A stretch of DNA of 57,899 nt, filler included, from Sphacelaria rigidula (taxonomy: Eukaryota): the NCBI GenBank assembly GCA_964200075.2. It is 4 parts of 4 records of this genome, joined end to end, with 100 filler letters (N's around TTAATTAATTAA, not from the genome) between each part and the next. Parts side by side here need not be neighbours in the genome. Positions count along the whole stretch, not along the records: positions 14,502 to 28,902 come from CAXNAA020002269.1; 3 more parts are not named here. One strand, 5' to 3'. This document shows, piece by piece, positions 1,802-43,502 of the stretch (positions are counted from its first letter, which is position 1; each line of letters opens with the position of its first letter). The position numbers and the translations under genes are program-made. The notes under the pieces were generated by a model, which was not told where the DNA came from, ran no database searches, and saw nothing but the letters and a program-made list of their open reading frames with translations.

Positions 1802-4800
1802 CTACTTTCCGTCATAGGCAGGATCGCCAGGATTGCGGTATCTGTCCAACGGCGACCGCAACCCATCACTCCCAAAATACCAGCCGCTGCCGGGTACATC
1901 CCCGGTAGCCAAAAATATCGGTGTTTTGGCCCCGTCAGACGGCGGTTTACCCCCCATTTCCTCCACAGTTTTGCCTGAGCCCGCCCCCACAAAAGCTCTC
2001 GACAAATCAGTCACGATCCACCCGGGGGTGCACGAGTTGATTAGCAAATTGGGGTGCTCTCGTGCCAGATACATGTTGTACATATTGACGACTGCCTTCG
2101 TGAAGCCGTAACCCGCTCTCGTGTCTGCGCCCGCTAGCCCTGCATCCGAGAATTTGGCCGACACTTCCTCGGCTGGCGAGGCGGACGAAATGGCTAAGCA
2201 TTCGTCCATCACACCTGTGATCTGTGTAGGAGGGAGAACGCGGATAGGGGGCGGGGGGGGGGGGTACCATTCATAGTCCGATGCTCGTTTGTTTTGAGAG
2301 TTGCACGGAGCAGCATGAAAGAACCATTGTTTTTTCGCACAAGCCGTACAGAGGGTTGTCGCTCCTTCATCAGCCCCTTTCCTTCTCATGGGACAGGCGG
2401 TAGTTTCGACCTTGGTTCGTTCCATCACTTCCATACCGTCCCTCGTATCCTCCAGTGCAGAAGGACAGCGATTTCACATTAACCGAAATCAAGATAAATA
2501 CCATCCGTCTTTGACTTGGGGTGTAAGATATTAACGCAGACCGGAAGCTCGAACATGAAATTTTGAACACGGTTCATCTATAAATTATGCGATGTGCTCA
2601 GAGGCCATGGACAAAAAGGTCGAATTCTGGGCGACTGGTACCACAAAATGTACTAGACAAGCCGCGTTATAATGTACCCATCAACATATGTAACTTGTCT
2701 TCATATCTGGAAGATGGCTTGTTGCCTTCGTCACTCCCTGGGTACGCTACCGCGCCACGACTGGTGAGCAGCAAAGTGTGCATTGGTTCCCAATTCCGAC
2801 AACAAAATGCCGTCCCAGTCGATCAACTGGTACATCATCGGTCCGTGAGGGCGGAGAAGTGGGCGACAGTCTCTACACCTATGGTTCAGAACTTGCGTCT
2901 ATTTTCATTGCGGGAAGGATGAGGACGTAAATGATGACAAAAGAGTCGACACAAGCCCAAAGGCTGTAGGAGTGCCCAACGCTCGATAAACATACTCAAG
3001 GGAGGTACCGGGAGGGAATAGGTTGATCTTTTCTGATAAAGGACTCCGCCCGAGGAAGGGGGCATACTCATTTGTTGCTGGTCTTAGTCGTTTGGCCATT
3101 GACTATGCATCCCCTTCGCGACCGAGCACCGTCTCTACTCCTAATAGAGGCACCTCCAACATGTCGGTGTTCATTACGCACGTTTCTTTTATACTTTACA
3201 CAAAACCTTTTACACATCTTACCCCTGTCCTGTATTGCCATCTGTAGCCACCATATTTTCTCTAGCACAGCCATCGTTTTCCCGCTACTGTCTAGTGCAT
3301 CAGACGATTTCATGCCACCTTCGTTCATGTCTTGCATTTTCCCCTCTGGCACGTCTCGTTCCTCCTTGTACAGTTCACATTCAGTGAAAGGGGCACATTT
3401 TGCTTGCAGCCTTGCGTCGAAGAAGTCGATAGGGATGCTCATTGGTGATGCGATAAACAGGGTTAATTGGCGGTGGACGTCCGTTTTTGCTCAAAAGCAT
3501 TTCCCTTCGAAAACATGAAGAGCGTCGTTCATGCACTCTTAAATAGTGGTACTCTTTTTCCATAATATAAAGGCGGTGTATTGGCAGCTTAGGCGTGAAG
3601 AGAATCCGCACCTCGCGTTAGATGACGCCGAAATTCGGAGAATGTGCAGATTGGTATCAGAGGAAGGTATCACAGTCACAGCTGCAGCAGGAAGACTCGC
3701 TAATGGTTCGGTCTGCATTAAGACGGTGGATATCCACGATGCGTGGGATTTCATGTCTTCAACACCCTGCTGTCTGATGACGATTATAGTGGGTACAGTG
3801 ACAGTTGAGCACGCAGGCTGCGACGGATCTTGCCGGCCTCATCATCAACCTTCGCCCAGTTATGGATGAACGCTCGAAGAGACCCAGCAAACAGGCATCG
3901 TTTATGGTCCGCTATGTATGTGAGTGTTGGGAGCTGCACGTTTCTGCTCCAAAAAGGTCCGTAGTCGAAGGTTAAGCTCCTCTCGCGCGACCTGTGGGTA
4001 GTGCCACGAATACCGGGGCGACATCCTGGTGCAGACAGTCCCATCACTACCGGGATGGGCGTCGCACCGGTATTCATCTAGCGTCATCAACTTGGAGTAC
4101 GGCCGCACAGGCTTTGCACGTGAATAATTTAGTGATTCTTTACTTCCACTTCGGCCATGTGCTGTGGGTGTTTTCACGATCTCACCGCCTCATATATATG
4201 TGGAAATATATTACACCGTGGACATGAGCTTTTTACAGTCAGTATGCAATTCAAAAGAATGTACTGTACACGGTATAGAAGCTTTTGCCTACTGCGACGT
4301 GCGCAATACTCGTAGTGGGAACTGCGCGCAGTTTCACTTCAAGACAGTGTAGAAATCTTCACGGTATGAATTGTCACAGCCGGCTTGCGCGCAATAGCGG
4401 CTGTGTTACCATACAGCTCTGCTCAAGATACAGGCATTATAGCGATAGGGGCGGCATTTTACTCCTGCGTGCGCCACCTAGGGCAAATGCACGCTTAGCT
4501 GCAACACCGGCCGTTGTACAAGATGTGGCGGAGCGAGGGGTGCTTCACCACGTACACGCAAACAGCAAGCAGTATCATACATATACTGAATAGAAGTGTA
4601 TGTGAAATCCGTGCGCGCGGGCTGGGGCCAGCATGTAGGGAACCCTGCACAACTTCGCCGTGTACTACCGGGACGCGACCTCTTTTCAGTTGCAGTCGCT
4701 TGTCAAGTGCGCTGTGACGGGTCTCGTGCGTGATGGTGCTTTTTCCACCCCCGAACACCGCCCGTGAAGCGAGCTTTCGATGTTGGAAGTGCCCACCCCT

Positions 4801-14401: not shown

Positions 14402-14501
14402 NNNNNNNNNNNNNNNNNNNNNNNNNNNNNNNNNNNNNNNNNNNNTTAATTAATTAANNNNNNNNNNNNNNNNNNNNNNNNNNNNNNNNNNNNNNNNNNN
14501 N
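14402..14501. other. Artificial contig-joining spacer (N44-TTAATTAATTAA-N44)
   Basis: Exactly 100 bp; TTAATTAATTAA gives stops in all six frames; identical to the other two spacers. Confidence 0.98.
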
Positions 14502-15051
14502 AAAGTCCGACACCCAAGTGGTCGCCCCCATTGTGGAAAAAGCGCGTGGGCGGTGTGGGGCGGGGGGGGGGGGGAGTACATAGGTGTGCGGGATTTGACT
14601 TTTCGTGCACCCTTGACCAAACTTCCGAAAAAATTTTACGTCCCGCTGCTGAGACTAATAAGAAGGTCCCACCACCTTTCATCATGACCGATTCTGCGTC
14701 GTTTTTTTTCTTTCGCCAGCCCGCCATATCCGAACCCGGAACCCAAGCGTTACTGATGTTTGAAACGAAGCGAGACATGAATGTGTCCGTAATGGGTGCG
14801 TATACGGTAACGAAACAAATAAGGAGACCGACCGCCTATCGAAGTCCACTCAACACGAGTAATGACAGAAACAATAGGAGCAGCTCACTCTGGTCTTCCG
14901 CCGTCCGTTAGTGCCGTGGACGGGAGTAATTTGATTCACAATGTATGCGTGCACGGTATACAGATCAGCTCAAGGGTACACACCTTGTTTCGGTGTATAC
15001 TTCACGCTACAGCAGAAAAACAGTGCTGACGCATGGCAGAAGGGCACTCAC

Positions 15052-16076
15052 CGCCTGGAACGCCTTCATCACTTTCGTGCAGATCTGCGCCGCTGTCAGT
15101 GACTTGTCCTTCAGTTGTTCGGGCTGTACAAGAGACCTATACCACATGAGCTCATCTACAAGCACATGCTCAACAATAGTCGAGGTCGCTTTGTTCATCC
15201 CTGTGCAACAGAAATATATATGTATATGTTCGGACGGGGATACATGTCGGGATGTCGAGGTCAGTGGGAGGAAGTCCTCTCAACATGAGCCGACGGTGAT
15301 TTAGCGTGTTACCGTGACCTGCACGTGGTCATAGGCTAGCTCTTGACTTCATTTCACCTTCATCTAACGGAGAAATATACTGGACGCGATTTGTGACAAA
15401 TACACTACATGTGAGGAAGGTCTACATATCATAGTGGACGAAAAAAAAACGATGCGGTTTTCCATACATTCTCAACAACGGATCCATGCAAAGCTGAAAT
15501 GGCACGTTCAAAACACTGAACAGGGCGCGAGTGTCGCAGCACTACGATGCAGTAACGACGCAGGTACTGACGCGTGCAACACTTCTCACCTCCGACCGAC
15601 CCGCTGCCGCCGCTTGAATCTGAGATATCGCTGAACACTAGACTATCTAGATGGCACATTGTTTGGGGTAAAAAATTGATTTGCTCACCATCAGCAACCA
15701 TGCGCATGATCGTCTTATCCATGGGGGAATGCACGCGCACAAGGATGGATGACGTTGTGTCGTCCTCTTCGTCGTTAGCTTTCATAGCAGCGACCCTATG
15801 GTTGCCGTCGGTCACGATGATGCGGGTATCAGGTAGGAGATCACTCAGTTGTGCCTGCTCAATGGAGTCCGTCAAACAGACTAGAGGCGCAAAAGATTCC
15901 AAAACTCCGTGTTCACGTATCGCCTTTTGAAGTTCTCGTACACCAGACTGTCGTTGAGGTCGACCCAATGACGTAAGCTCAAGGTGTGCGACAGACACCG
16001 TACGGGTTCCGAGGAAACATTGGCTCAATAGCTTCTGCATCCCTGTGGCGGCGGGCGATTATGCTGGAGCTGACAT
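15052..16076 (-). CDS. Spliced ParB/Sulfiredoxin-fold (ParBc-like) protein; exons 16076(or 16040)-15689 and 15200-15052; further 3' exons probably toward the contig end
   Basis: R...GVRELQKAIREHGVL...PLV...IIVTDGNHRVAAMK matches the ParB N-terminal box I/II pattern. Donor G|GTGAGC (phase 1) matches acceptor CAG|GG ATG AAC; exon 2 ends GCG|GTGAGT. An upstream in-frame ATG at 16076 is followed by a TAA at 16061-16059, so this copy may be damaged or start at 16040. Confidence 0.75.
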
Positions 16077-16334
16077 GGTCGAGTAGTAATGTGAAAGGTG
16101 GCGAGATTACCCACAGCAGCGTGGGCGACAGTTAGCGCCTACATAATATTGTTTTCAAACTGCGTTCGGGTCATCAACGCCATCACCAGTAGCCGCGATC
16201 ATCACATATCCGTTGTTCAAGCAGCACCTTGCTGGTCCTGGTTCATGTCAACGCTACTCTCTTGGCCTCTTCGTTCTGTAACATGTGGGCCAGGCCGTCA
16301 CGACCCATCGGTTTTACGGTAACATTGCAGTGCA

Positions 16335-16627
16335 CACGGGTGGCCGCTGGGGTCTGAATCCTGGCCATTTTGAGACCTTATCCACATTTGGTAAGGTCCG
16401 CGGGTTAGGTGGACAACTAAAGAGCATTCGCACAGTATGGACAGATTCGAAACAAAGCATGTTCTAGTCTACAGGGGAGTCACTTGCCTATAGACTGGAA
16501 CATGTTTTGTTTCGAACCTGTCCATGCTGTGCGAATGCTCTTCAGTTGTCCACCCAACCCGCGGGCCTTACCAAATGTGGATAAGGTCCCAAAATGGCCA
16601 GGTTACAGATCCCAGCGGCCACCCGCG
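16335..16627. mobile_element. Foldback MITE with CACGGGTGGCC termini and 2-bp TSD (CA)
   Basis: Near-palindrome with ~140-bp arms centred at ~16480. Ends are cacgggtggccgctggg...cccagcggccacccgcg, flanked by CA on both sides. Confidence 0.85.
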
Positions 16628-16744
16628 CAGAGTTTCTTTCAACGGGTGGATGGGATAAGGAACATGTCTTCTTTCGACACAGCGGCATATCTGCTAGAAG
16701 GTCACGGACGGAATGTAGCCACCGTTTTGTGTCAACCTTTAGAC

Positions 16745-17035
16745 GGCGATGGAGAGTCCATCTCTTGAATCAGCATCATTTCCACCTGAAAAAATTATGT
16801 GACCCAGATGGACTGCCCGCATCGTTGTCTAAGGGTTAAAATATGGGATGGTACGATAGTGGAACCGGTCTTCCGGTTTTTTCCACATGTGTATACCCGA
16901 TAAAAACCGCTCCGTCTTTGACATCAGATGCCAGCACGATATTTTAAGCCATAGACAGCGGCGCGGGTATTCCATCTGGATCATATGCTTTCAAGTCAGA
17001 TGGATGCCGATTCAGCAGGTGGACTCTCCATCGCC
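16745..17035. repeat. Older, diverged palindromic (foldback/MITE-like) element
   Basis: ggcgatggagagtccatctcttgaatcagcatc pairs with gatgccgattcagcaggtggactctccatcgcc. Inner arms cagatggactgcccgc...ttaaaatat and atattttaag...gcgggtattccatctg also pair. Confidence 0.7.
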
Positions 17036-17819
17036 CCCACGGCCTAATAATCTGGTATATTGAGAACTATAGATGCGGGACACATCCGCAGACGGTCTGT
17101 CTGCCGTTAATCATGAATTCATAGTACAGGCCTGTATATATTTGAAGAGGCCAGAATTCGTTGACGGAATAACGGCAACGGTCACGCATCGGAAATGATT
17201 CTTGACTATCGCACCGAACCGAAACATCACCGTTAGATTTCAGAAAAGTATCGGTGTAATCTGAACGCTGTGAATCCAATTCGTGACCGACAAAAGTTTT
17301 TCACCGCCTAGGTAATTTATTCTATTCTTCGGCGGAACATACGATAGTATCGTGCTGGGCATAACAATATATGAATAACAAGCATTTGGTGTGATACTGT
17401 CGTCATTATCCGATCGATTGATTACGTGACGTAATGAAATATGCAATACGCATATCGTTTCGAATACGGCGACGCATCAACTCACTAGATATCCTATTCT
17501 CACGCCATGTCATCCCCCGGAACGAAATCCGCGTCCTCCCGCCTCACTCTGTCAGTTCATTTTACTGTTCTACCTCGGAGCTATCGGGAACAGCCAACCG
17601 ACATATGCACACCGTCGCTACGCTGCCAAAGCGAGTCCTTCAGCGGATGATGAACATTGTGAGTACAATCAACCCACCATGCATGGCATACAACGTGTGA
17701 TGAGATCTTGTCGCCTGAAAATATCACATGAAGAGTGGATGACATGGAGTCTGTCCGATGATATCTCAACTTCCCCGATCGGCGTCTGAATGTAATGCAT
17801 GAGAGGATATCATACGGTT

Positions 17820-17965
17820 GTAGTGATGGATTAGTGGCAGGGTTAGGGTGAGGGGCGTGGTATTTGCAGGGACCGGCCCGATCGTTTATCCAAAACGTCG
17901 ATCCTGAGGTGTTTTGAACTACGACGCGATCCACTTGGTCCGCGGTCCCCTAACAGATTGCACTA
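17820..17965 (+). repeat. Partial copy of the TTAGGG-core MITE family
   Basis: gggttagggtgaggggcgtggtatttgcagg...aaaacgtcgatcctgaggtgttttgaactacgacgcg aligns with 7400-7520. Confidence 0.7.
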
Positions 17966-18529
17966 CTGGTCCTGTACGATGCACCACAGGGTTGACAAAT
18001 GTTCGCCGCTTTCTATGCCTCGAGGGCACGCAGCCGGACTCTAACTATCGGAGCGGAAGTACAATCAATTGATCCGCCATCGTCGGGTTCAACAACGCCT
18101 GCAGGTGGAGCGAATGATGCAAGAGCGCCGCCGAAGAGCACTGCACAAGTGGTGGGTACTTTGCCAAAACCCACCCGTAGACAGCAGTGCGGGTGGTCCA
18201 TGTGGATTTTGATGCTAAGAAACCAGCTGTACTTTAATAGTATATGAAGCTTGTATGCGGAGCAACATGAGGTGGTCGGGGTGTTGCTTGCAGTACAAGC
18301 CGAATCGAAAATGCTATTATGATGGGCACGACACGTGCACCGGTATCCATACTGAAGAGACAGCCGTGGGGTCGGTTTTCACTGCCGGACCATGTACTTG
18401 CCTGTGCTTGGTGAGGGCCCTTCTTAACCCTTGGACCGCGAGGTAAGGCTTTCTGGATCATGCATACTTTTTTTCACTTGAAATTTATGCTGATTCAACA
18501 CAAGACTAACCTCGCGGTCTATGGGTTAA

Positions 18530-19138
18530 CGAAGGGGATTATCCCCTTTTTCACAATCCCCTTTTGACAGGGAGTTGGCCCCACAACGACCAGCCCCGAG
18601 ACCTATCGGCAAGCAGTTTTGTACAGGTTGGAACCCAGATCTGCACGCAGATNNNNNNNNNNAGATTTACAAACGCAGCGGGTCAGGAAGTGGTCGTTAG
18701 TCCAAGCAGGTCCAAGGTCTGTGTAACGCGAAGCACACGCTTACAATCATCATTTCTCAATGAATTCTGAACAGATTCGAGCAAGGTCACGCACAACCTG
18801 CACAGCTGATGATCAGGTACGGCTCGAGCTGTGTGTTTCTGGTTTGCGGGGCCATCAAGTTCCTCAGGTTCCGCTCTGATTGTGTTGGATTGTGTGGTAA
18901 GCCTTTGCATGTGCCCCTGTCAACCGGACACGTATGTTCCTCTTCGAGGTGCTGGAAATCTCCTTTTGACAAGGGGATTGCAGGAAGTGTTTTTGCACTT
19001 GGTGAAATCCCCTTTGGGGAGGGGATTTCCGTGCACATTGAGAGAATTTTGTTTTTTTTGGGGGGGGTGATATCGCAGCGACCAATCGCCGGTCGTTTTT
19101 TAAAAAGGGGATTTTGAAAAAGGGGATTATCCCCTTCG
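18530..19138. mobile_element. MITE with ~38-bp TIRs flanked by TTAA
   Basis: TTAA|cgaaggggattatcccctttttcacaatccccttt ... aaaggggattttgaaaaaggggattatccccttcg|TTAA. Contains a true 10-N gap at 18653-18662. Confidence 0.85.
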
Positions 19139-19339
19139 TTAAGAAGTACCCTGACGACCTAGAGCGGAGGGCGTGTGATACCATAGCACAACTGGTCCGC
19201 TCTCAAATGTGTTTTGCGGGATGATGCTGTTCGAGTGGTTAGGCCGGGTCTTATCAGAATCGATCATAACGTTTCGGAGCAAAACACCTTTGAATAAGGA
19301 TGGCTTCAACAACGCCAGGCTTTGAGTATTATCAACAGT

Positions 19340-19720
19340 CCGTTCTGGCCATATCGAAGCCCAGATCTGCACACAGGCTCAGAAATGCGGCGGGTGTGGA
19401 AGTGGCCGTTAGACCAAACTCTTTGTACCGCTTCAGACTAGACGCAACAAGGCAACACAACGTCTGCAAATCGAGTCCCTCGCACACACACAACCCACGC
19501 GGAGTAGCTCCAGCGGTAGCTCTTCATCATGTACACATAAACAGTAATTGTTTTATGGAAGTCCGTTAGGTATTGGATGAGACACAGGCATGTGCGTGTC
19601 AAATGACAACCGAGAGCATCCACGGATATATCTGAGTGTTTTTGGTTGCGGGGGCGACGCGATCCTCAGGTTCGAATTAGATTGTGTTGAGTTGTCTGTC
19701 AAGCCGTTGGTGATTCTCGT
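19340..19720 (+). repeat. Diverged second copy of the internal sequence of the TTAA-flanked MITE
   Basis: cccagatctgcac...ggaagtggccgttag and tgcgggg...cctcaggttc...gattgtgttg blocks match 18634-18700 and 18830-18905. Confidence 0.65.
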
Positions 19721-20030
19721 GTTAACGGGATATGGTTGACCGGATGGCTACTTCATTCTTTTTTAAGGGGCAGGTGGACGGTGAACCTCAGCGTTCACGG
19801 GGCTGAACGCGCGCGCACTTGAAGCCCCCTCTTGTTATGTTTTTCCGTGCCTGTGTTGCAACCATTCCATGAGTGGTCACGTGCTGCCTGGCTCGCACAT
19901 GAGTCTACCGTGCACTTCATTCTGTGCGTCCTGCCCTCCTGCCATAAATTTGATCGGAAGCACGCACGTATCGCGATCGATCCCAAGGATGGCACACCAT
20001 TTGCTGCAGTATTATTGCACCAAAACAAAA

Positions 20031-20066
20031 ACAGTACAGTACAGTACAGTACAGTACAATACAATA
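20031..20066 (+). repeat. (ACAGT)n/(ACAAT)n pentanucleotide microsatellite
   Basis: acagtacagtacagtacagtacagtacaatacaatac. Confidence 0.9.
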
Positions 20067-20086
20067 CCGTAATATCAATGTTATAA

Positions 20087-23000
20087 TGTATATGGTAGCC
20101 AAGACACGTGCAAAGGCTACTCCGGACGAGTTGCTGTGCATAGCGACCGACGGGAGCGACCAGTCAAGCTATGCCACACCGTACTTCAGGCAGGAGACCA
20201 AAGACACAAGCAAAGGGTGGAAAGCAACACGCTGTAGTAAACAAATATTCCGAAAAGGCATGGTGTACAACCACTCAGTCGCCGCTCGATATAATAGCAA
20301 AGGTACAAGTTTGCAGCCAATAAGGAGGCGGTACGTACAAATGGCGACACTCTGTCCCCGTATGGCGCCCCGTCGCTTCGATACCCTCCGACAACTACAT
20401 CAGTATTTATGCGGGAGTCCTGTGTAGAAGCGAGGATGATCGCGCATCTGTGTTGTGGTAGCTTTGACTCGGTTTCAATCGAAAGACATTGTTGTAACGA
20501 TGTAGCGATATAGGCTAAGTAGGGATGTTTTTTGGGGGGGCCCGCCAGTGTTGCATAATGTAACCCAATCTAATACATCACCTCCTGCGCCTGCAACGTC
20601 ACAGATGAGATTGAAACTCATAGGCGCTCTCGTGAGTGGAAGGATGTGCATGTTCTACACGCTGGGTTCGAATTGGGAATCAGGTGAGTTCGATCTGGAT
20701 CCGGACAGACGCGCAAGTCTTCGCACTCCCCTGTACCGTGCATGACAGGTAGATAAAAGAACGTCAGTATACTCCCCCTACGTGAAAAAGGGGGGGGGAT
20801 GCTTCGGGGAGGGCGGGGGCACTGAGGAGAAGGTGGCGTGACATTCTGCCCATATATCGACCAGACTGTGCATCGACCATTATGTGGTCGCTGCTCCCGT
20901 CCCGTGACGCCACGGACCAGGACACTTCGACCAAACATCAGCGGCAACGCCTTGCGTTTACGGAGGGCACTTTGACTGGCATTTCGTCTGTGCTTCCGCG
21001 CGAAATCAGGGTCGAACCTCTCCATCCAAGTCCTCCACGCCACACTAACGGAGGTAACGGACAGTCTCAAAGAAGGCAAAACACTCCCTCGAGCTCTGCA
21101 CTTGCAGATGGATAACTGTTCAAGGCGAATGCATGACACGTGTGAGGTGGGGGTAAGAGAGACCGGGGGTTGGTACGTGCTCATACCGATACCCCGATCG
21201 CATTAATCCCTCTCGCCCCGCGCCCTATGGACCTTTCATTTGCCGAACAGGGAGAACAATGACCGGATCTTCCTCGCATTTTTGCACATGCTGGTGTACC
21301 ATGGTATCTTTGATTTCATCGAGCTGCACTTCGGACTGAAGGGTCACACCCACGACGGTGAGACCGCGCGGTGTAAAAGGCAATGAGGCGAAGTTCCCCC
21401 ATTCCGTGGGTACCAGTCGCTGCCTGAGTTGTCGAATTGGTAGAGTAGCAGCACACAGTGTTTTTTGTGGCCTATACTGTCGTGCTTTCTTCTACGTGTA
21501 CTCCTACCCCACGCCCTCGACCTCCCCCCGTACCCAGTCCTGCGCTGCGCCAAAATAACGTACATCCCCGCAACTACGTATGCTGTGATGGGCGCTGGCT
21601 GGTGGACCACATGCGCGCGTCGGTGCTGGCGCCTTTGACCTCTTCAGAGATAGACCAGTTCTTCTCCAGGTACGGGGCCTCGTCTCCATGCTGTCCTGAG
21701 TTTTCGCCCAAAACACGGGATATTACAAATGGAGTAGGGAGTTTTATCGGGTATTGGCGCCGGGAAAAATAAAGAGATAGATAACGTCTTCACCACGCAG
21801 GGGGACTCGTCTCCATATTGTAGCGAGTTTTCACCCAAAATACGGAATTTTACACATGGGGTATGGATATTTCATTGGGTATCTGCGCTTAAAATATTCG
21901 TAGCCACGCCGAATATTCGAAATATTTTCCCATTTGTTCACCTACTGATCTTTATTGACAACTACAATACGCCATACAAGTTTGGATTTCGAAAACCGAA
22001 ACGTTGGGGTCCCAGATGAAAAACCCATTTCAGCGTCCATTCGGATCGGCGAAAGACCCCGGAATTGGTTTTTCACCTCTGGGACCCCAACGTTTCGGTT
22101 TTCGAAACCCGATTTTGCATGGCGTGTAGTTGTTGTCAATAACGATCCGTAGGTGAAGAAATGGGACCATATTTCGAACATTCGGCGTGGTTACGAATAT
22201 TTTAAGCGCAGATACCCAATGAAAAATCCGTACCCAGTTTGTACAATCCCATGTTCCAAGCGGAAGAGGCTTGCGTCACCTTGTGCCTAGAGAATATCAT
22301 AGCACGGCACCTTCGAACAATTCCCAAGGTAACCTAGAGGATAATGTGTTGGGAAGACATTTTCATACGTGCAGTTCCCTGCAGAGATCGACATTGCACA
22401 ACAGGCGGCGGCACCTTCGAGTCCCCGGATTATTATATTTGTTTCTGACGGATAGGGTGGGAGTGGGCCTCAAGAGAACGGACGCCGCAACTCGGACCCT
22501 TCTCGGTCAACGTGTCTTCGAGTTCTACAGGGCGGGAAACCCCTACTTCCACGTCGGCCTGACGCACTTGAACAACTGTACGATTATTCGGGACCTTCTC
22601 GTCGGCTGCATGTATTCGATTCCCTCTGTCACGAAGCCGCAGGCGTTCAAGGTGTCTAGAGATCCTACGGACGGCTTAGTCAAGATGAAAGTGCAGGAAA
22701 GAAGCTACAGGGACGATTGGGGCGTGATCAACAGGTGCGTCGTGTAGGATAGCATCCGAGGATGAAATATATATATACGTTCGCAGCTTCTTCAGGTGTT
22801 CTTTCACAACTGGTCGTGGTTGCTCTTTGAGGATCGAAAGACAGGGTCCGATGAGAAAGGGTTGAGCATGGAGCATAATATATATGAATAGTGCAAACCG
22901 TGGCCGTCCGCTCGTTTGTGATGCTTCGAAAAAAAGAAACGGCGAGTACGGCGAGGGGTACATGAGCATCATGAAGAGCTGGCCTGACCTGCGGGATAAA

Positions 23001-24395
23001 CCTGATCACCCACGGAAAGTGGTGGACGACCACACCCTGAACCAGCACCGCTTGTGCATCGAGGCTTCGGAGCGACGGGTCGAGACTCACTGCCACAGCG
23101 TCGGTGAGTGTCTGAGCATCCCAACTATGGTGGTGCCTGTACGGCCGCTGAAAATTGCACGGGTGATCTTGGTGAAGCATCACCCAAGCACCCGCCCACC
23201 GAGAAGTCTTAGTCATGACCTGGCCCAGTTGGTCAGTGCCATGCGTCACGGTAGTGCGAAAAAGGATAACATTGTCCACGGGTGGCCACTGTGGTGCCTG
23301 AAACCTCAAATTTGGACATTACAGACGTTGCACAAGGTCTGTAACGTCCAAATTTGAGGTTGCAGACACCCCAGTGGCCATCCGTGTCGTATTTGCTATA
23401 GACACGGGTAGGCACCGATTTTTACCCTCGCTGGAACAGGGACCCTTGTACGTACGGCGGACCATTTTGCACGGGCCACCCACGTCGAGGTATGGATAGT
23501 CGCGCTCCGTGTGTCACGTTTTCGTACACGAACTACCGTGATTCACCCGGACGGTGGTTTTTCTCGATAGGACAGTGTTTTCCCATCTCATCATTAATGG
23601 AGGCTGTACGCACCATACTATACGCCAATATACCGTCTAATAACACAGGTGAGCTGCCGGAGAGATTGTCGGCGAACCAATATCCCAGGGCGTTGATGTC
23701 GGAACTGGCGTCAAGCGTTATCGACGTTGGGAAGTCGACGCCTGTTTCTTTCGACTGGAATCTGCCCCTGTATAGTAGGCCCGAGTCAAACGACAACACA
23801 GATGATGATGGCGGGGCTTCGAACTCAGGTACACGCGATAGCACGGGTGATGCGGCTCGGACTCTTGGAGTGAGGAGCGATCCGTCTTCTACGGTGGGGG
23901 ACAGAGTTGCCGGGAGTGCAGTAGCGACTGGAGCTTCCCCTGTCCCACAAGGAGGGGGGGGGGAGGAGGCGCGGCCTGAGTAGAACGCCGGGGCCGCTAT
24001 TCAGGGTGGAGGTTGGAGAGTTTGTTGCTTTTTCGCAGCCGAAGAGCTCGCCGTTGTCGGTCTGTGTCGGGAAAATATTGTTCATGAAGAAGGGGGCAGA
24101 TGGGGACGAGGTGGAACTTCAGTGGTACATGCCAAAGAAGGTAGATGCCAACGCACCGCGGTCAAGATATGGGAGAGGAGGGTGGACCCCCGAGTATCGC
24201 ATGGTGGACGGGAAAAGGGTACGCTCGATCTCCTTCGAGCACGTTGCAGCAATAAGCTGGCAATTCGCCAAGCTTCCCACATCCCCGAAACTTCCGCATC
24301 ATGTGTGGTCTGCTATTGCAGAAACTACACAAGCACAAAACGCTATAGAGGACGTGGGGGATGAAGATATGGATGTCGGAGATGAAGACGAGTGA
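20087..24395 (+). CDS. Multi-exon RNase-H-fold DDD transposase-like protein (DUF7869/Sola-like); exons ~20087-20223, 20605-20683, 21010-21124, 21251-21357, 21648-21669, 22456-22734, 22937-23103, ~23649-24395 (frameshift at the poly-G ~23953-23963); 5' end unresolved
   Basis: Spliced translation: LLCIATDGSDQSSYATP...MRLKLIGALVSG...GSNLSIQVLHATL...LPRALHLQMDNCSRENNDRIFLAFLHMLVYHGIFDFIELHFGLKGHTHDEIDQFFSRV. Splice phases are consistent through these exons. Probably a damaged copy (frameshift, weak GC donors, no acceptor before 20087). Confidence 0.8.
21845..22250. repeat. ~400-bp foldback palindrome in a transposase intron
   Basis: Arms such as cattgggtatctgcgcttaaaatattcgtagccacgccgaat / attcggcgtggttacgaatattttaagcgcagatacccaatg and tttcgaaaaccgaaacgttggggtcccaga / tctgggaccccaacgtttcggttttcgaaa; centre ~22050. 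Confidence 0.9.
23277..23386. mobile_element. 110-bp MITE with CACGGGTGGCC termini and 2-bp TSD (TC)
   Basis: tc|cacgggtggccact...ccagtggccatccgtg|tc; palindromic; same family as 29136-29245. Confidence 0.88.
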
Positions 24396-24999
24396 TAGGC
24401 AGAGAATTCACCGACACCCGGCGTTCGGGGCTTGTCATGTGTAGCCATTCCCGTCGCACCACCGATTTTGTCCGGCTGTGTACTGGCTTCAGTTCGCGCG
24501 CACGATAGTCGTCTTGTTATCGGAAATTACGTGCAGCTATATAGCTGTCGATATGGTCTTGTTCGCGGTTGGTTACAGCTTCTGCGTATATCAAGTTGTG
24601 CAGCGTTTTCGGGAATACAGGCGGTTCGGCCGCAGGCGCAATAATTACAATCCTCGCAACACAATATCTCTCAAAGGAGGGATTATTTTCATGGCTTGGC
24701 CCAAAATGTCGTTAACAACTACCTGCTGATGACGAAATACTCTTTTGCTTCGCAAAAGCGAACAAACCTGGAATTCGCTCACGACAAGGCGGTTTCTTTG
24801 TAAGACATGAGTGGAATATGTATCGCGGGCTGAGAGTTTGTCCCTCGTGATATACAGTGTTGACTTGATACTCGAAACAGTTGCGATACTTCATCTGCAC
24901 TTGTCAAAACATTATTCGAAATTTGTCCTGTTACTGTTAGCTGAGTTTGCAGTCAAAAACGGATGAATAAACACTATCCTTTAGAATGTCTCGGTTTTT

Positions 25000-27900
25000 A
25001 ACCAATGTCCTACCCAAGCATCTTCCTACGGAGATTAGGGAATTATCACCAGTTACCGCACCAGGATTCTCCAACGTCGCGACCAAGCGTTTTCGCATGA
25101 AACCCAGTGAAACATCAACAGGTTTGCCGGCAGGACTTTGCACCAATGTGCGAGGTAAGCGTTTTGTCTATTATTGATGTAGGCACAACCGGCCGCTGAA
25201 AGCCATGAAAAGCTTACTCTCAATCGTATCGTAGATTCTCAATCTCACCAAAACACTGTTGAAGGTCGGCAGGCCATTTACCTCACGTTCCCTACCTGCA
25301 TGTTTCGATATACTCAACGGACAGTTGTTGGGTTGTGCTCAGGCGCCTCTCCTACGAACTTTGCTGTCATATGCGTGCCCCCCTGCGGAAACCAACTCGT
25401 CAACCGACCCCCCGAAAACCACGGGCGCCCCTCCACTACACATGCCTGATCCCGTGGTGGTGACGAATCTACCAGATACACCTGAACCTAAACCCTCAAC
25501 TGCATTACTGGACAGGTTTTCCCCACAACAACGTGCCAGTTTCCAAACGTTGTGGGATGACATCCCCCAACAGTTGCGGCATATTGTTTTTGATCTATCC
25601 GGCGATGGTTGGATACCCACTGTAATCGATAGATTGTGATCCATCTTGATTAGATATTCTAGACGGTTTTCTACTGCACCGTTGGATTTAGGTCGATGTA
25701 CCACGACCCCTTTCAAAATCAAAATCCCTGATGGCACTCCGCCTATCGCTATGCGTCCGTACCGTACGAACCCCCTCTTAGCGGAGAAGCTCCAATTAGT
25801 TCTCGATAATTACTTATCCGCCTGTTTAATTCGGCACTCGACGGCTCCGTGGGTCTCGCCTTAAGTAGTCGTCCGCAAGAAGAATGGCAAAATCAGGCTG
25901 ACGGTAAAATATCAACGATTGAACGCTGTCACCAAAATCGCCCGGCTGCCTCCTCCACGGATTGATGAAATTATTGACCCTCTTGGCGGGGGGAAGGTAT
26001 TTTCAAACTTCGACATGCAGTCCGACTACCATCAACTCGTGATGGATCCGAATTTCATTGAACTGACGGCGTTTTGCACGCTATCAGTTTTGTACAAGTG
26101 GCTGGTTACACCACAAGGTGCCACCTGAGCCCCAGGTACGTTTCAACGTGTAATGTTCCGTGTGACTGATGGATTGCCCAAATGTCAGTGTACCTTGATG
26201 ATGCGGTGTGCCATGACTCCACACCGGCCGAACACGTCGAACAATTGGCATCACTCTTCGGTCGGTTTGAACAACACGACTTGAAACTCGCCCCCTCCAA
26301 ATCCCGCATTGGCGCCACGAAGATTGAGTTCCTGGGTGATTGCATCCCCCCCGAAGGTCGTAGCCCAAACCTCAACAAGGTCGCCACACTCGCCGACATG
26401 CCCATGCTACGGGACATTTCTCAACTGCATTCCTTGTTGGGAGGTCTAAGCTACTACAGACAGTACTTGCCAAACCTTACCCGAACGCTCAAACCCCTCA
26501 CCACCCACCTCAAAAAAAGGGTGGAATTTGTGTTCACATCGGAAATGGAAAAAATCATCCGCCGTCTTCTTGACACCCTTTCGCGCCCGACGATTCTCGT
26601 CTTCCCCGACTGGTCGGCCGCGGAACATGGTTCTCGCCTTTCCGTCTCCACACAGGTTCTTCTAAAATTGGGTTTGGCTGCATATTAGAACAGAAGTAAG
26701 ACGATGCTACTCTTCGTCCCATTGTATATCTGAGTCGCACCACGTTTCCAAATGAACAGAATTGATATGTCGTGGAATAAGAGGCCGGCGCAGTTGTTTG
26801 GGGCGTGCGACGTCTGCGTCAGTATTTGTATGACGACATCCCGTTTGTGATGTATACGGATCATGAGTCTTTGGAAAGCCTCGCCAAAATGGCGGAACAC
26901 AACGCTAGGGCACAACGCTGGTTCGAAATCCTGTCGTCTTACAACTTCCAGTTGAAATATCGCACAGGCCCGCAAAATGCAAACGCCGACTTCCTGTCAC
27001 GCTTGCCCACACCGACTCAATCTATCGATGAATCCCCCATGGGACGTATCACCGATCCCACCGAAGACGTTGTATATTTCATCAACAGGAATGGACATAG
27101 AGGTCTCTACACACCGCTCTCACTGAGGAAAACGCCGGCTTTAGGCGTGGGTGGGCTGACGACCACAGCCTACGCATCAGTGCTGGGCAGCTTGCAACGT
27201 CAATCGTTGTACTCAGTTTGGAATGGACTGTCTACGAATGCTGTTGGCTATGATCATTTTCGTGCAACTGGCCAACGCATGGTTTTTGCAGCAGGTGTAG
27301 AACCGTCCTTTGCTGACTCCGTCTCACCAGTTCAGGTTCGAGATTTGATCTCGGGTAGGACTCGTGGACGGCGGACCGCCGAAACGGCCACGAAATTAGC
27401 CGTATCTGGTCCTGACCTTCCCCTACCTGCCCCCACTCCGGTCCCCGATAGTTTCCTTGCGCCTCGTCAACCTCCACGACGCAAGGCACCCAGAAGCTCG
27501 ACCATGACCGTGTCTCCCTTGCCAACCATAGCCGAAACCACGGCTGTGCCCCCCTCCCTTGGTGATGATATTAACAACACCACCACAACACCTCCCACGC
27601 TAATCGACGCAGCAGTAGATGTTAGCGTTCCGCCTGAGAATACACCACCTGGTAGGCTCACCCTTGATTCCGACATCACCGCTTCTTGTCACCCCCGCTC
27701 CGAACCGACCCAACTCGAAGTAGACGCTTCAACAGATGGCGAATTCAAGGAACGTTTTACTCTCTTTTCCCACGCCGATTGGGCCCGGGAACAACATGCA
27801 GAACCTGCTCTTGAATCAGCTATCCATTATCTATCCAAAGGTTGCCCGTGTCCATTCTCCGAAATCGAGTTCCTTTTGCCCGTCGGGAACCTCAAAGCCC

Positions 27901-28850
27901 CCACACAGGATAAAGTTACTGAACTTTCGCGGAAAGGTGTATGCTGCATACGGACGACGATGGTGTAGTTCTGTCAGTCCACCGGCCCACAGCGGCCCTC
28001 CCCAGGGGGAAGCCTACAAGTCGACATGCCCACTTGCTAGGTGATGAACCCATCCGAATATATGTCCCGATGCTCCTGCGCCCATGGGTTCTACACGAAT
28101 GCCATTCACAGGCATCGACTCATTTGGGCGCCATCAGGACCTCCCAGATGTTGTAACGTTTTTATTGGTGGATTTGCATGGATCAGTGTTCTCGTTGGTG
28201 GGTTCGGCGTTGTGTCTTGTTCCAAGCGCGCAAGGCTTCACGTCAAACAGTTCGTTGGCCGATTGTTTACATGCCACTCCCAAACGGGCCTTGTGAAGTA
28301 GTTTCGTGGGACTGTTTTGGTCCTTTGCCCCCTGACGGATAGTGGTAATAAGTGTATGACACTTTCTACGATAGCCCCCCCCAAAAACCAGCTAAAAGCG
28401 TCACGAAAAAACTGGCCATACAGCACCTGATGTTCGGGTTCGGGCTGCATGAAGCGCCTCATATTGGCGGCAGTAGCTACAACGAACCCAAACGTGGGAA
28501 TTCTTAGCTTCCCGTTGTGCTCGACTTTTTCCATTTTAATTTACGCGAAGATTTTGCCTCCCAAAACCATGCACTTTCGGGGGGGGGCTATCGTAGAAAG
28601 TATCATATTTCGTTGTTTACAGGTAGATTTAGTCGACACGCGGTGATGCACGCTGTCCCGGCCAGTAGCTATAACGCGGAAAGTACCGCCAACATTCTTG
28701 TATACATGTACATCCCCCAGTGGCGTGTGCCCAAACGATTACTGTCTGACAAAGGCTCGCATTTTTCAGGCAAACTTTCGGCCGCAGTCATTGACCTTTT
28801 GGGTGCCCACCGCATTTTCATTAGTTCGTATCACCCTTCCACCAATAACA
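25000..28850 (+). mobile_element. Decayed Ty3/Gypsy LTR-retrotransposon pol (RT-RNase H-integrase)
   Basis: RPYR...STAPWVSP; PRIDEII...FSNFDM; YLDD at 26191-26202; LGGLSYYRQY; RNase H YTDHESL...NANADFLSR; integrase His/Cys zinc-finger remnant and core (RFSRHA, PKRLLSDKGSHF, SYHP). Many stops and frameshifts; LTRs not seen. Confidence 0.92.
28357..28605. mobile_element. Tc1/mariner-type MITE (TA TSD) inserted in the Gypsy integrase
   Basis: TA|tgacactttctacgatagccccccc ... gggggggctatcgtagaaagtatca|TA. Removing it plus one TA restores the integrase frame GNKCISLFTGRFSRH. Confidence 0.88.
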
Positions 28851-28902
28851 ACAAATTGTGCGAATTGAGGTTTAACTCCGAGATGAGGTTCAAGCCTAAA
28901 AC

Positions 28903-29002
28903 NNNNNNNNNNNNNNNNNNNNNNNNNNNNNNNNNNNNNNNNNNNNTTAATTAATTAANNNNNNNNNNNNNNNNNNNNNNNNNNNNNNNNNNNNNNNNNN
29001 NN
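28903..29002. other. Artificial contig-joining spacer
   Basis: N44-TTAATTAATTAA-N44. Confidence 0.98.
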
Positions 29003-29135: not shown

Positions 29136-29245
29136 CACGGGTGGCCACTGGGGTGCCTGCCACCTCAAACTTGAACGCTACAGACCTTGTGCAACGTCTG
29201 TAACGTTCAAATTTGAGGTGGCAGGCACCCCAGTGGCCACCCGTG
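29136..29245. mobile_element. 110-bp MITE with CACGGGTGGCC termini and 2-bp TSD (AA)
   Basis: aa|cacgggtggccactggggtgcctgccacctcaaa...tttgaggtggcaggcaccccagtggccacccgtg|aa. Confidence 0.9.
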
Positions 29246-30689: not shown

Positions 30690-33466
30690 CAATTACGCGA
30701 TTGCACGAGTGCCGAGACCAAGGCAAAGATCCACACTACATGGACGGCGAGGGAAACAGCACGGAGGGTATCCATGTCAACACCCACTGACACCAACCTC
30801 AAGAAAGTCTTGAAGGAGACCAACAAGAAACCCCGTCGTGTTAGAGCAGACGCGGTGGAGAGATTCTTCGAGACCTACGTCAGCCGACTTGAAGCTCACA
30901 TCGCGGAAGGTGACCAACGCGGTTCCTACAGGCACCTGAAGGGAATTGATGTCGAAGGGAGGAAACCATGTAGCTCATAGCAGCAATATATCCGCGACAA
31001 CAAGGGCCAACTGCTCAGAAACGTGAAGCTCATCCGCCCGCGGTGGCTACAATGTTTTCACACCCCCCTCAACACCCAGTCGCCCCACCTCAACCCAGCA
31101 ATCATCGACCAACTCCAGGTGCGACTTCCGAGCACGTCGCTAGACGAGATACCTACGATAGACCAGGCAGTGAATGGCATACGATCTATGTTCAACGGAA
31201 AGGTCGTCCGCCTAGATGGACTGCCGGCTGAACGGCTGAAGATACTCGTCGACGGCGACGACACTAGCCGACTACAGAGATTCCACGCTATCATCGTTGA
31301 CATCTGGAGCGGGGCAGCCGTACCACAAGAGTGGAAGGATGCCACCATCATGGTTCTCCGCAAAAGGGCGACTAGACGGACTGCAGAAACTACAGAGGAG
31401 TTTCACTCGTATCACACGCCGGCAAAGCGCTCCTCAAGATAATCACCCGCCTAAGCATCTGTGTCGAGGGCAATGTAATTCTGCCTGAAGAGCAGGGCGG
31501 CTTCCGCCCCGGACGCTCAACCGTCGACATAATGTTCACCGTCCGACGACTCCAGGAACTTGGCCGTAGACGACAGATCCCGCTCTACATACATATGTTT
31601 CGTCGACCTCACGAAAAAATATGATTCTGTCGACCGCCTATTGCTGTGGAAATTTCTGGAACGCTATGGCGTCCCACCCATCATGCTCTCGATCATCTAG
31701 CAATTCCGCGATGGCGTGCAAGCTCGGGTGCACACGAACGACTGGGAATACTCGGAATGGTTCGACATCGGACAGGGCCTCCGACAGGATGCGTCCTAGC
31801 ACCACTACTCTGTAATATTTTCTTCACGGCAGTGCTCACGGTGGCCCTGGCAAGCTTCCGCGAAGGTCCTGGCATCTTGGGGGACCTGGTGCGAGTCCGA
31901 AAGCGTGAAAAGGGAGATTTCCAACAGGAATGTGCGGTAGCATGGGTCAAGCCAGACGTGGCCACAGCTACCGTGGCAGAAGAGGTACGGTCCATATTAT
32001 GGAGTATGCTGTACGCCGATGACGCCTGCATCGTCTCGCGGACACCATCGAGCCTCGAGAAGGCGATGACGGTGATTGCGACGATCTGCGGAGAGTTTGG
32101 CTTGACCGTGTCGGAAGCAAAGACGAAGACCATGCGGCTGCACTCACAGGCGGGGCACCTCGACACTAACGCGGCTGGCCAGATATACAAACAAACACCT
32201 TTGTATACCTGGGGGTGTCAGTTAGGAAAGCGACGATCTCTCGTTGGACATAAAAAAGCGCGAACAATGGGCATGATCGAACTACTACCAGTACAAAGTC
32301 CAACTCTACAGTCGACCGAACGCGGCGGTCAACCTCAAGGTCCGCATGATCAAAGCCGAGGCTGTCGAGGCGCTCCTGTACCGGTGCGTCACATGGACCC
32401 CTCTCAACGCACACTACAATCTCCTGCGCACGGCCCACCATGCGTTGCTCAGGCGCTGTCTTGGATAGCACAAGCGCAATCGCACAGACCACGTTCTGTC
32501 ATACCGAGAGACCCTCGCGAGGACAGGATGCGAAAGCATCGAGACGATGGTGAGGGGGAGGAGACTCCATTTCTCCGGTTTCGTCACGCGCATTTCACCC
32601 GGACGGATACCGAAACACGTCATGTTCGGTGAAGTTACAGCCGTAAAGGGGCAACAAAGACAATTTAACGGCAGGCACAAAGACTGGATCCGTTGCCTAG
32701 CGGAAGACATGAAGGCGTTCGGTATCGAATGGCAGGGGTGGACTACCAGATCCTCAAATGCAGTAGAGGTGAACGGCTGTGTTGAACAGGGAGCAGGAAG
32801 GTGTATGGCGGACTGGTGCCAAAAGGATGACGCAGCGGCAGCGATACGGCACGCGAAAGCTGTAGGCCAAGGTGCACCGACAGCACCTGGGGCCGACAGT
32901 ACCAGCATCAACTCATCATAGTCTACGCCAGATGCCGTAGAGTATTGTGTTTGGTTCCAATCTCTGGTTTGTCCATCTCTTGTTCCTGGTGGTTTATTGT
33001 CTGTTCTTGTTCCGTCTGCGCACCCCCCCTCCCCCCTTCCCCCTCCCCCCGGAAACGAGCCTGATTCCGTCTTGTCTCTTGTATTCCTTTTTCTACAGTA
33101 AGTTTTATTTTCATTTTTTTCTTTTCTTTCATTTTTCTCCCTATTTTTGTTCTTGATTTTTTTTTTCATCACGAGCTGGAGTCTTCATATCAGCTACGTA
33201 ATGCGAGATAATCATCTTGTTGTGTTGTTCGTGTTTGCGTTTGTGTGTGTTGCTTGTTGCTTGTTGTTTGTTGTTTGTTGTTGCTGTTGCTGCTGTTGTT
33301 CTTGTTCTTGTTCTTTCCTTTGTGTGGATTTTGCCCCTTCTGTCTTTTTCTGTTATTTTCCTTCTTTCGTTCTTATTTTCTGTTCTTTTTTTTGCTTCTC
33401 CTGACCACGAGCTGGATTGTTGTAATCAGGTAATGTGAGCTAATCAATCAATCAATCGATCAATCA
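30690..33466 (+). mobile_element. Decayed RTE-clade LINE (RT domain, 3' UTR and (ATCA)n tail), 5'-truncated
   Basis: DGLPAE, VPQEWKDA, NYRGVSL, EEQGGFRPGRSTVD, FVDLTKKYDSVDR, GLRQGCVLAP, LYADD (32012-32023), FGLTVSEAKTK, RIPKHVMFGE; tail taatcaatcaatcaatcgatcaatcaa at 33441-33467. Multiple frameshifts. Confidence 0.92.
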
Positions 33467-43402: not shown

Positions 43403-43502
43403 NNNNNNNNNNNNNNNNNNNNNNNNNNNNNNNNNNNNNNNNNNNNTTAATTAATTAANNNNNNNNNNNNNNNNNNNNNNNNNNNNNNNNNNNNNNNNNN
43501 NN
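43403..43502. other. Artificial contig-joining spacer
   Basis: N44-TTAATTAATTAA-N44. Confidence 0.98.

Follow-up and report, generated by a model that had tools for sequence, protein, structure and literature searches.

The stretch between position 14502 and approximately position 25100 of the analysed window (57,899 nucleotides, along the whole of which positions are counted) probably belongs to the interior of a giant, intron-bearing DNA transposon of the cut-and-paste type, from a brown alga that is likely Sphacelaria rigidula or a near relative, and in architecture it resembles the Ectocarpus element Sola1-1_Ec32. A ParB-like gene on the minus strand and a DUF7869 gene on the plus strand are arranged head to head and are divergently transcribed with 4.0 kb between them. 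As a transposon, the piece would be a further example of the arrangement published for Ectocarpus in 2025 and would not constitute a new kind of element. The 14.4-kb piece is preceded by an N linker at 14402-14501 (N/TTAATTAATTAA), and position 14502, which had been taken as the start of the element in a first-pass annotation of this DNA, is the edge of the piece behind this linker and no biological boundary. The piece stops inside the ParB gene and both element ends fall outside of it; equally, TIRs, TSDs or termini are not visible within the piece, which holds neither end, and an inverted-repeat search found no long inverted repeat joining the flanks of 14502-25300.

Contigs of several sequencing runs were compared with the window, among which X1 and X2 are DNA runs and X6 to X9 are regarded as RNA by guess only, with no record as RNA; X6 and X7, the two probable RNA runs, come from a related alga. 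Less than half of the sampled words were present in any one run, and summed contig depth does not equal copy number. Splice-like joints at predicted introns, seven in the transposase gene and one in the ParB gene, occur only in X6 and X7 and are absent from the DNA runs X1 and X2 (Table 1). A joint from 14577 to 21710 in X6, with a shorter side of 21 letters only, was judged spurious.

Table 1. Features mapped on the 14.4-kb piece, in coordinates of the whole window
Feature	Positions	Strand	Description
Presumed ParB intron 2	14502-15049	-	Cut by the piece end; 3' exons beyond the window
ParB exon 2	15050-15200	-	GMNKATSTIVEHVLVDELMWYRSLV...KAFQA; AG acceptor before, GT donor 15049-15048 after
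ParB intron 1	15201-15688	-	488 nt, GT..AG
ParB exon 1	15689-16040	-	ATG start (MQKLL...), end ...RMVAD/G, then GT donor; GRPQRQSG and DGNHRVAA motifs
Upstream in-frame ATG and stop	16059-16078	-	ATG 16078-16076, then TAA 16061-16059, before the MQKLL start
Palindromic MITE-like insertion, spacer	16337-16625	.	144-nt arms, 90% complementary; bin depth 29,490 (X1), 83,413 (X2)
MITE-like insertion, spacer	16745-17035	.	47-nt arms; X2 contig skips 16690 to 17003
Nested element	18526-19142	.	40-nt terminal inverted repeats (95%); inside high-copy 17869-19311; 10-N gap 18653-18662
Transposase exon A (visible part)	20087-20223	+	…MVAKTRAKATPDELLCIATDGSDQ…KGWK; holds DGSDQ; donor GC in this copy
Transposase exon B	20605-20683	+	MRLKLIGALVSGRMCMFYTLGSNWES; joints 20221 to 20603 and 20677 to 21004 (GT..AG, cut +6)
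Transposase exon C	21010-21124	+	MDNC; donor GC in this copy; PF25273 31.3 bits, profile 30-71; joint 21122 to 21249, ambiguity 3
Transposase exon D	21251-21357	+	ENNDRIFLAFLHMLVYHGIFDFIELHFGLKGHTHD; PF25273 31.3 bits, profile 70-105; 92% identity to P0045
Transposase micro-exon E	21648-21669	+	22 nt, (E)IDQFFS(R); in X7 contig joining 21357 to 22454
Palindromic MITE-like insertion, intron E/F	21839-22255	.	185-nt arms, 85%; bin depth 27,600 (X1), 43,470 (X2)
Transposase exon F	22456-22734	+	VGVGLKRTDAATRTLLG…WGVINR; 84% identity to P0045
Transposase exon G	22937-23103	+	NGEYGEGYMSIMKSWPDLRD…HCHSV; joints 22737 to 22940 (3 nt off canonical sites) and 23102 to 23648 (GT..AG)
Palindromic MITE, intron G/H	23277-23386	.	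110 nt; 23270 to 23385 skipped by contigs from each of the four runs
Transposase exon H (last)	23649-24395	+	Stop TGA 24393-24395; C-terminal part …FRVEVGEFVAFSQ…ELQWYMPKK…
High-copy retroelement	25100-28902	+	RVT_1 in 25865-26128 and 26170-26688; RT_RNaseH in 26781-27965

The minus-strand gene was recognized by its ParB signature in the frame 15432-16058 (...ELQKAIREHG...DGNHRVAA...), and its proposed spliced nature is borne out by the two visible exons and by one X6 contig that omits 488 nt (15198 to 15687, depth 4141), the length of intron 1. In those relatives of exon 1 that were aligned, similarity stops at the intron 1 boundary. Exon 2 finds its counterpart in residues 134-198 of the relative P0010 (E 6e-6), the spliced frame is open, and the visible reading frame is unbroken over 167 codons. 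In the presumed second intron, X6 depth drops from 1640-3563 to 34 in the bin 14502-14982. A tblastn comparison with P0010 across the stretch upstream of the first exon reads MSAPA*SPAATGMQKLL, where relatives encode 12-15 residues, and the stop codon, judged from the sequence, may have arisen by a nonsense mutation within what was once the ParB N-terminus. No parS-like repeat arrays were found beside the gene in 14502-25300. Repeats there were limited to a 15-nt sequence in two copies, located within a MITE, and to an (ACAGT)8 microsatellite.

The N-terminal domain of this gene is predicted to possess the ParB/Srx fold. An AlphaFold model of exon 1 built on a 36-sequence alignment reached a pLDDT of 92.1 and a pTM of 0.83, and the best 10 matches of this model in a Foldseek search against the PDB are all ParB, Noc or PadC (from E 9.6e-5, TM 0.62), including all 7 matches at E<=1e-3, followed by sulfiredoxin, KorB and SbnI. 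Equally, a structural search of BFVD delivered 42 matches at E<=1e-3, with most of the named ones ParB-like. On the sequence level, none of the 36 family members scored above the cut-off for Pfam ParB_N (PF02195), and the family profile gave chance matches only against PDB sequences (E>0.4). Sub-threshold Pfam matches among the 36 members were to GmrSD_N (3/36), DUF1015 (2/36), DUF6551 (1/36) and DndB (1/36), all of which we take to be families of the ParB clan. In the alignment, R27, G45, G79 and R82 do not vary, conservation of N80 and H81 is at least 90%, and DGNHR(V)AA stands in the place of the GERRxRA box. The predicted fold of the N-domain is shared with sulfiredoxin and with the bacterial ParB, Noc and KorB proteins, CTP-dependent DNA clamps, with which a conserved G-R…R loop and a Gly/Arg-containing motif before the central helix are also held in common. 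In contrast to bacterial ParB, DGNHR replaces the GERRxRA box, sequence identity is 12-21%, a Pfam ParB_N match is lacking, the gene is eukaryotic and spliced, and the visible exons show neither an HTH nor a dimerisation domain, with the 3' exons located beyond the piece end.

A search of 1.84 billion cluster representatives yielded 44 relatives of ParB exon 1 at E<=1e-3 (best 59% identity), all 44 with a length of 313 aa or less. A search for longer proteins found no long relative, methyltransferase-fused or not, and the longest relative, P0010 (313 aa), gave no methyltransferase match. The search for near relatives retrieved only two unnamed Logan proteins. In a metagenome scan (alignment A2), one out of 536 pattern matches was confirmed, L001, a 1415-bp contig without gene context. 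Given 44 clusters at 50% identity in which the first intron is conserved, the ParB-like gene might belong to a widespread, fast-diverging family of stramenopile transposons, and its effector half might differ from the methyltransferase seen in Ectocarpus. Another possibility is that the DGNHR-type domain itself clamps transposon DNA in a nucleotide-gated manner, in end recognition or in protection from silencing. Either would be an undescribed variant of the accessory system, and this is considered quite unlikely.

The plus-strand gene spans 20087-24395 with eight visible exons and at least one upstream exon outside the window. The initial description of a gene with at least eight exons and three acidic motifs holds, with RNA-like contigs supporting the exon joints and with the motifs in the order DGSDQ (20149-20163), MDNC (21108-21119) and GHTHD (21342-21356), the last continuing into the micro-exon that reads EIDQFFS. 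Its assignment to DUF7869 (PF25273) was equally correct, as two consecutive exon frames match the Pfam profile collinearly with 31.3 bits each (E 2e-7), above the curated cut-off of 26 bits. The gene thereby resembles the DUF7869 proteins over profile positions 30-105, a family without described function, which we take to be the catalytic core of Sola1. A literature search for 'DUF7869' gave no result on a link to Sola, the Sola passages of PMC5751038, bioRxiv 2021.09.26.461848 and PMC3985635 do not give Sola motifs, and the Majorek supplement contains no Sola1 rows. The closest transposase relative, P0045, is an NCBI 'unnamed protein product' of Sphacelaria rigidula which carries PF25273; it reads INR/NGEY over the junction of exons F and G and remains 92% identical even across translated intron sequence. 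The joint from 20221 to 20603 is present in both X6 and X7, and a contig of X6 has a loose end at 20087; therefore, the upstream exon sits elsewhere. No match to this exon was detected when allowing up to 3 mismatches in 23 positions, up to 7 edits of a 30-mer or up to 3 changes in its 9-residue translation. A degenerate tandem duplicate of the micro-exon and its downstream intron (77% identity) occupies 21773-21872. Exon H is spanned by an 803-nt X7 contig (23648-24451). Its C-terminal part gave no Pfam match and chance matches only in a sequence search of the PDB (E>1), and a single-sequence AlphaFold model of the C-terminal domain was unusable (pLDDT 38.8).

The two genes had both been described as decayed. 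This can be maintained for the transposase, where the 5' exon is missing, exons A and C possess GC donor sites and exon H is split at the G10 run 23954-23963, which is one G too long, this letter being left out at 23954 in all four runs. For the ParB gene, decay is only hinted at, with the TAA between the upstream ATG and MQKLL as the sole sign. Because of the missing upstream transposase exon, the 1-nt insertion in the last exon and the two GC donors, the copy is probably non-autonomous.

The neighbourhood is rich in MITEs, as had been noted, with five palindromic or MITE-like insertions mapped, and the bins that contain them show a 10- to 100-fold greater depth in the DNA runs. Contigs of the DNA runs differ by 3-10% from the window and lack the MITEs; for example, an X2 contig skips from 16279 to 16667, so other copies are without the insertion at 16337-16625. 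The nested element of the spacer reaches a depth of up to 209,694 (X1) and is bridged by joints from 18650 to 19434 (X1) and from 18726 to 19442 (X2). Altogether, approximately 1.5 kb of the 4-kb spacer consist of later MITE insertions missing from other copies, and the gap without them is approximately 2.5 kb (joints skip 387, 312 and 783 nt). A second copy of the 110-nt MITE is located at 29136-29245 in the next piece. From bin 25084 onwards, the depth climbs approximately 40-fold over the retroelement, which is either nested in the transposon or its right-hand bound.

A single mobile unit that includes a ParB-like accessory gene is the most likely reading of these observations, as such a head-to-head arrangement has been published for Sola1-1_Ec32. 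This giant Sola-1 DNA transposon of Ectocarpus has a size of 21,549 bp, AACCG/CGGTT termini, a 282-bp TIR and a 4-bp TSD, and codes on the strand opposite to the transposase for a 1104-aa ParB-like/DNA-methyltransferase protein, in which a ParB-like part is followed by an N4C/N6A DNA methyltransferase and which has been proposed to bind and mark the DNA of its own element (Dinatale et al., Genome Biol 2025, PMC12477816). The giant elements of Ectocarpus are also described there as containing nested TEs and transposases that are often pseudogenised. The features in common are the brown-algal host, the very large element, the intron-bearing transposase gene, the opposite-strand ParB-like accessory gene, the nesting of unrelated TEs and the broken transposase, a likeness at the level of the published architecture. 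The two differ in that the source of the present piece is closest to Sphacelaria and not to Ectocarpus, and in that the methyltransferase half and the ends fall outside the 14.4-kb piece. Both gene identities of the first-pass annotation (ParB/Srx fold, DUF7869) stand. Its impression that no such element had been described in brown algae fails as of 2025, because Sola1-1_Ec32 had already been published with a ParB-like gene opposite the transposase (PMC12477816). A ParB-like domain at the N-terminus of an accessory protein of a transposon is also known from PAG3 of the giant Plavaka/EnSpm transposons of red algae, which has likewise been suggested to bind its own element and modify it, but is fused to a 2OG-dependent oxygenase, belongs to another transposon superfamily and has tandem inverted-repeat arrays beside the gene (Petroll et al., bioRxiv 10.1101/2025.02.11.637652). 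A tandem inverted-repeat array of this type was not found in 14502-25300. In such a mobile unit, the transposase would cut and paste the whole unit, and the ParB-like domain might serve as a DNA-binding or nucleotide-binding targeting module of the accessory protein. Later on, the element was invaded by a retroelement and by MITE-like insertions, of which there are at least five.

The two genes might instead be unrelated neighbours in a repeat-rich region, with the DUF7869 gene part of one transposon and the ParB-like gene part of another mobile element or a lineage-specific host gene. The spacer full of unrelated insertions, the absence of common ends from the 14.4-kb piece and the identity of the best ParB relatives overall (59-66%) as compared to the best transposase relative (84%) would be in line with such a constellation. 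However, the same pairing has been published for a brown alga with Sola1-1_Ec32 (PMC12477816), spliced contigs of both genes turn up in the same pair of RNA-like runs, and the gap shrinks to the size given above once insertions missing from other copies are removed. Contig depth, which does not equal copy number, is also of the same order for ParB region, spacer and transposase alike, in X1 (419-455 versus 443-1446 in transposase contigs) and X2 (1445 in the spacer contig versus 692-1544 in transposase contigs). Unrelated neighbours are therefore judged unlikely.

The frameshift, GC donors and missing 5' exon of this copy, the existence of diverged paralogue-like copies and the MITEs in introns, missing from other copies, also make it very improbable that one or both genes have been domesticated from a transposon into single-copy, immobile host genes under purifying selection, even though both appear transcribed and correctly spliced in the relative and the visible ParB frame of 167 codons is intact. 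Hardly credible is the origin of the region from an integrated giant virus, a phaeovirus or another member of the Nucleocytoviricota, with a ParB-like gene. Language-model look-alikes of P0010 are indeed clusters from Nucleocytoviricota and phages, and the BFVD matches include Pithovirus, Orpheovirus and CroV proteins; these structural matches, however, reflect the general ParB fold only (5-21% identity), the viral-contig scan for ParB relatives confirmed none of 106 pattern matches, the region contains at least nine spliceosomal introns with support from RNA contigs, and the partner gene codes for a eukaryotic transposase-type DUF.

Transposons with their own gene for ParB-like DNA binding and DNA modification have only recently been recognised as a class, with members in green, red and brown algae. 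Genome annotation should mask the locus as transposon sequence instead of recording two host genes. If true, the same pairing in a second lineage of brown algae would make the module older than the split between Sphacelariales and Ectocarpales and would provide diverged copies for locating the binding sites of the ParB-like protein.

Both genes of interest, the ParB-like gene on the minus strand and the transposase-like gene on the plus strand, reside entirely inside the second piece of the window (14502-28902). Position 14502, given in the first-pass annotation as the start of the candidate, is an artificial piece edge with a linker directly before it; as pieces adjoining in the window need not adjoin in the genome, no inference is possible across the linkers, which separate four pieces of about 14.4 kb each. 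Elsewhere in the window, a GC-rich (54-58%) stretch contains an uninterrupted frame of 905 codons at 46854-49568 (minus strand) that matches no family of Pfam at E<=1e-3, and a frame of 572 codons at 50210-51925 (minus strand) includes a zinc finger of RanBP2 type (PF00641, 31.7 bits).

Coordinates of linkers, exons, motifs and contig joints along the window
Feature	Position	Strand	Remark
Linkers N44-TTAATTAATTAA-N44	14402-14501, 28903-29002, 43403-43502		
ParB-like exon 2	15050-15200	-	AG acceptor before, further GT donor after
ParB-like exon 1	15689-16040	-	ATG at 16040 (MQKLL) to GT donor
Joints skipping MITEs	16279->16667, 16690->17003, 18650->19434, 23270->23385		
Transposase exon A	?-20223	+	
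DGSDQ motif	20149-20163	+	exon A
Transposase exon B	20605-20683	+	
Transposase exon C	21010-21124	+	
MDNC motif	21108-21119	+	exon C
Transposase exon D	21251-21357	+	
GHTHD motif	21342-21356	+	exon D, then EIDQ in micro-exon
Transposase exon E	21648-21669	+	22-nt micro-exon
Transposase exon F	22456-22734	+	
Transposase exon G	22937-23103	+	
Transposase exon H	23649-24395	+	last exon
Transposase joints (X6/X7)	20221->20603; 20677->21004 (GT..AG); 21122->21249	+	
Transposase joint (X6/X7)	21357->22454	+	micro-exon in between
Transposase joints (X6/X7)	22737->22940; 23102->23648 (GT..AG)	+	

The ParB-like open frame (15432-16058) includes ELQKAIREHG…DGNHRVAA and, once spliced, extends over 167 codons without a stop. 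One contig of X6 (X6 and X7 are runs of the coded organism A, 90-97% alike and only guessed to be RNA) leaves out 488 nt, precisely as much as the GT..AG intron measures, with its joint 2 nt off the splice site because of the repeated G's there. A search of 1.84 billion cluster representatives with exon 1 alone gave 44 protein relatives at E<=1e-3 (14 of them at E<=1e-10, best identity 59%, all <=313 aa), and a word-index search added P0049 with 66% identity; exon 2 matches residues 134-198 of the relative P0010 (E 6e-6). Within an alignment of 36 of these relatives, four residues (R27, G45, G79, R82) are invariant, and five more (T23, G33, N80, H81, A116) reach 90% conservation or above. In almost every one of these relatives similarity stops at …VA.G, where the first intron lies, a pattern expected when gene callers read through introns and contigs are short. 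The 3' exons of the gene itself fall past the piece edge at 14502.

None of the 36 ParB-like sequences matches Pfam ParB_N; their sole Pfam matches are sub-threshold ones to DUF1015, GmrSD_N, DUF6551 and DndB, which we take to be ParB-clan families, and a profile search of PDB sequences with the ParB-like family gave nothing beyond chance matches, so that by sequence the assignment to ParB is weak. By predicted structure it is clear: the AlphaFold model built from the alignment (pLDDT 92.1, pTM 0.83) has Caulobacter ParB as its top PDB match (E 9.6e-5, TM 0.62), the other best matches being Bacillus and Myxococcus ParB, Noc and PadC, then sulfiredoxin, KorB and SbnI. Among predicted structures of viral proteins there are 42 matches at E<=1e-3; the named ones are mostly ParB-like, and one is a putative modification methylase. 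The ParB signature proposed by the first-pass annotation for a spliced minus-strand gene is thus upheld by motifs in frame, the intron-skipping contig and the modelled fold. As the arginine box reads DGNHR and not GERR, CTP binding by the protein is not to be assumed.

In the transposase-like gene, two consecutive exon frames match Pfam DUF7869 with 31.3 bits each (cut-off 26 bits) at profile positions 30-71 and 70-105. Its introns are marked by joints in X6/X7 contigs that are absent from the DNA runs X1 and X2; joints and sequence together give eight exons, in agreement with the eight or more originally noted, and all three motifs named with them are present. The joint between exons F and G is set 3 nt from canonical GT/AG, and the NCBI model of the closest relative, P0045 (INR|NGEY), agrees with the canonical sites. 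The C-terminal 140 residues have no relative in Pfam or PDB, and single-sequence prediction yielded no fold. The micro-exon and about 80 nt of downstream intron are tandemly duplicated (21646-21745 and 21773-21872, 77% identity), the second copy having lost reading frame and splice signals. With respect to a link between DUF7869 and Sola1, no mention of 'DUF7869' was found in the literature search; the original description of Sola by Bao and colleagues in 2009 reportedly comprises a DDD transposase and a 4-bp TSD.

Decay had been assigned to both genes, and for the transposase it is evident. An X6 contig extends upstream of 20087 into sequence for which the window holds no match at <=3 mismatches in 23 or <=7 edits in 30, nor for its 9-residue translation; hence, at least one 5' exon present in relatives is missing here. 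An (ACAGT)8 microsatellite at 20031-20071 directly precedes the first visible exon, at the point where this copy and the transcript of the relative part ways, and may be the trace of the lesion by which the junction to the upstream exon was lost. Furthermore, exon H is split by an extra G in the G10 run at 23954-23963 that the bulk of the contig depth lacks in each of the four runs, and exons A and C have GC instead of GT donors. In the ParB-like gene decay is barely visible, the sole sign being a TAA (16061-16059) that separates an ATG upstream in the same frame from MQKLL, in a segment translated in relatives.

That the two genes form one mobile unit, a transposase with a ParB-like accessory gene, is the best explanation and probably correct; the main rival, chance neighbourhood in a repeat-rich region, appears unlikely. 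P0045 ("unnamed protein product [Sphacelaria rigidula]", NCBI, with PF25273) is 84% identical to exon F; its first 25 residues are identical to the read-through of intron C|D, and over the first 76 residues identity to the window translation is 92% overall, which makes it a recent paralogue or close orthologue and places the source among brown algae near Sphacelaria. Three Logan proteins show 61-64% identity. DNA-run contigs across both genes are 190-470 nt long and 3-10% divergent from the window. Contig depth, which is no copy number, amounts in X1 to 419-455 over the ParB region and 443-1446 over the transposase, and in X2 to 1445 for a spacer contig and 692-1544 over the transposase, with up to 27,000-490,000 in bins of MITEs (palindromic insertions); depths of the same order across ParB region, spacer and transposase are no more than consistent with one repeated unit. 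MITEs skipped by contigs are absent from other copies; without such insertions the two genes, head to head, would be about 2.5 kb apart instead of 4.0 kb. One 110-nt perfect-hairpin MITE with 54-nt arms, of very high copy in the DNA runs, occurs at 23277-23386 in a transposase intron and at 29136-29245 in the next piece, the two copies being 86-90% alike. A high-copy, frameshifted retroelement with RVT_1 and RT_RNaseH frames occupies 25100-28902 (plus strand) at 40 to 400 times the transposon depth in the DNA runs, and either lies inside the transposon as a nested insertion or forms its right-hand limit; the third piece holds another reverse-transcriptase frame (31625-32629, plus strand; RVT_1, 39 bits).

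A published precedent favours one mobile unit. A study on Ectocarpus describes giant KDZ, EnSpm and Sola-1 transposons in which TEs are nested and the transposases are often pseudogenised (Dinatale et al. 2025, PMC12477816). Among them, Sola1-1_Ec32 (21,549 bp, with AACCG/CGGTT at its termini, an imperfect TIR of 282 bp, 4-bp TSD; 1989 copies, 2 intact) encodes, on the other strand from its transposase, a protein of 1104 aa that has ParB-like and N4C/N6A DNA methyltransferase domains (PMC12477816), so that the assertion that no such element had been described in brown algae does not hold. PAG3 of red-algal Plavaka elements is a ParB-like/2OG-oxygenase accessory gene adjoining inverted-repeat arrays (Petroll et al., bioRxiv 10.1101/2025.02.11.637652), whereas no comparable array was found in 14502-25300. 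The gene arrangement resembles that of Sola1-1_Ec32, with a ParB-like gene on the strand opposite the transposase in a brown alga; by this analogy, the window element is a putative partial, damaged copy of an element kind published for another brown alga.
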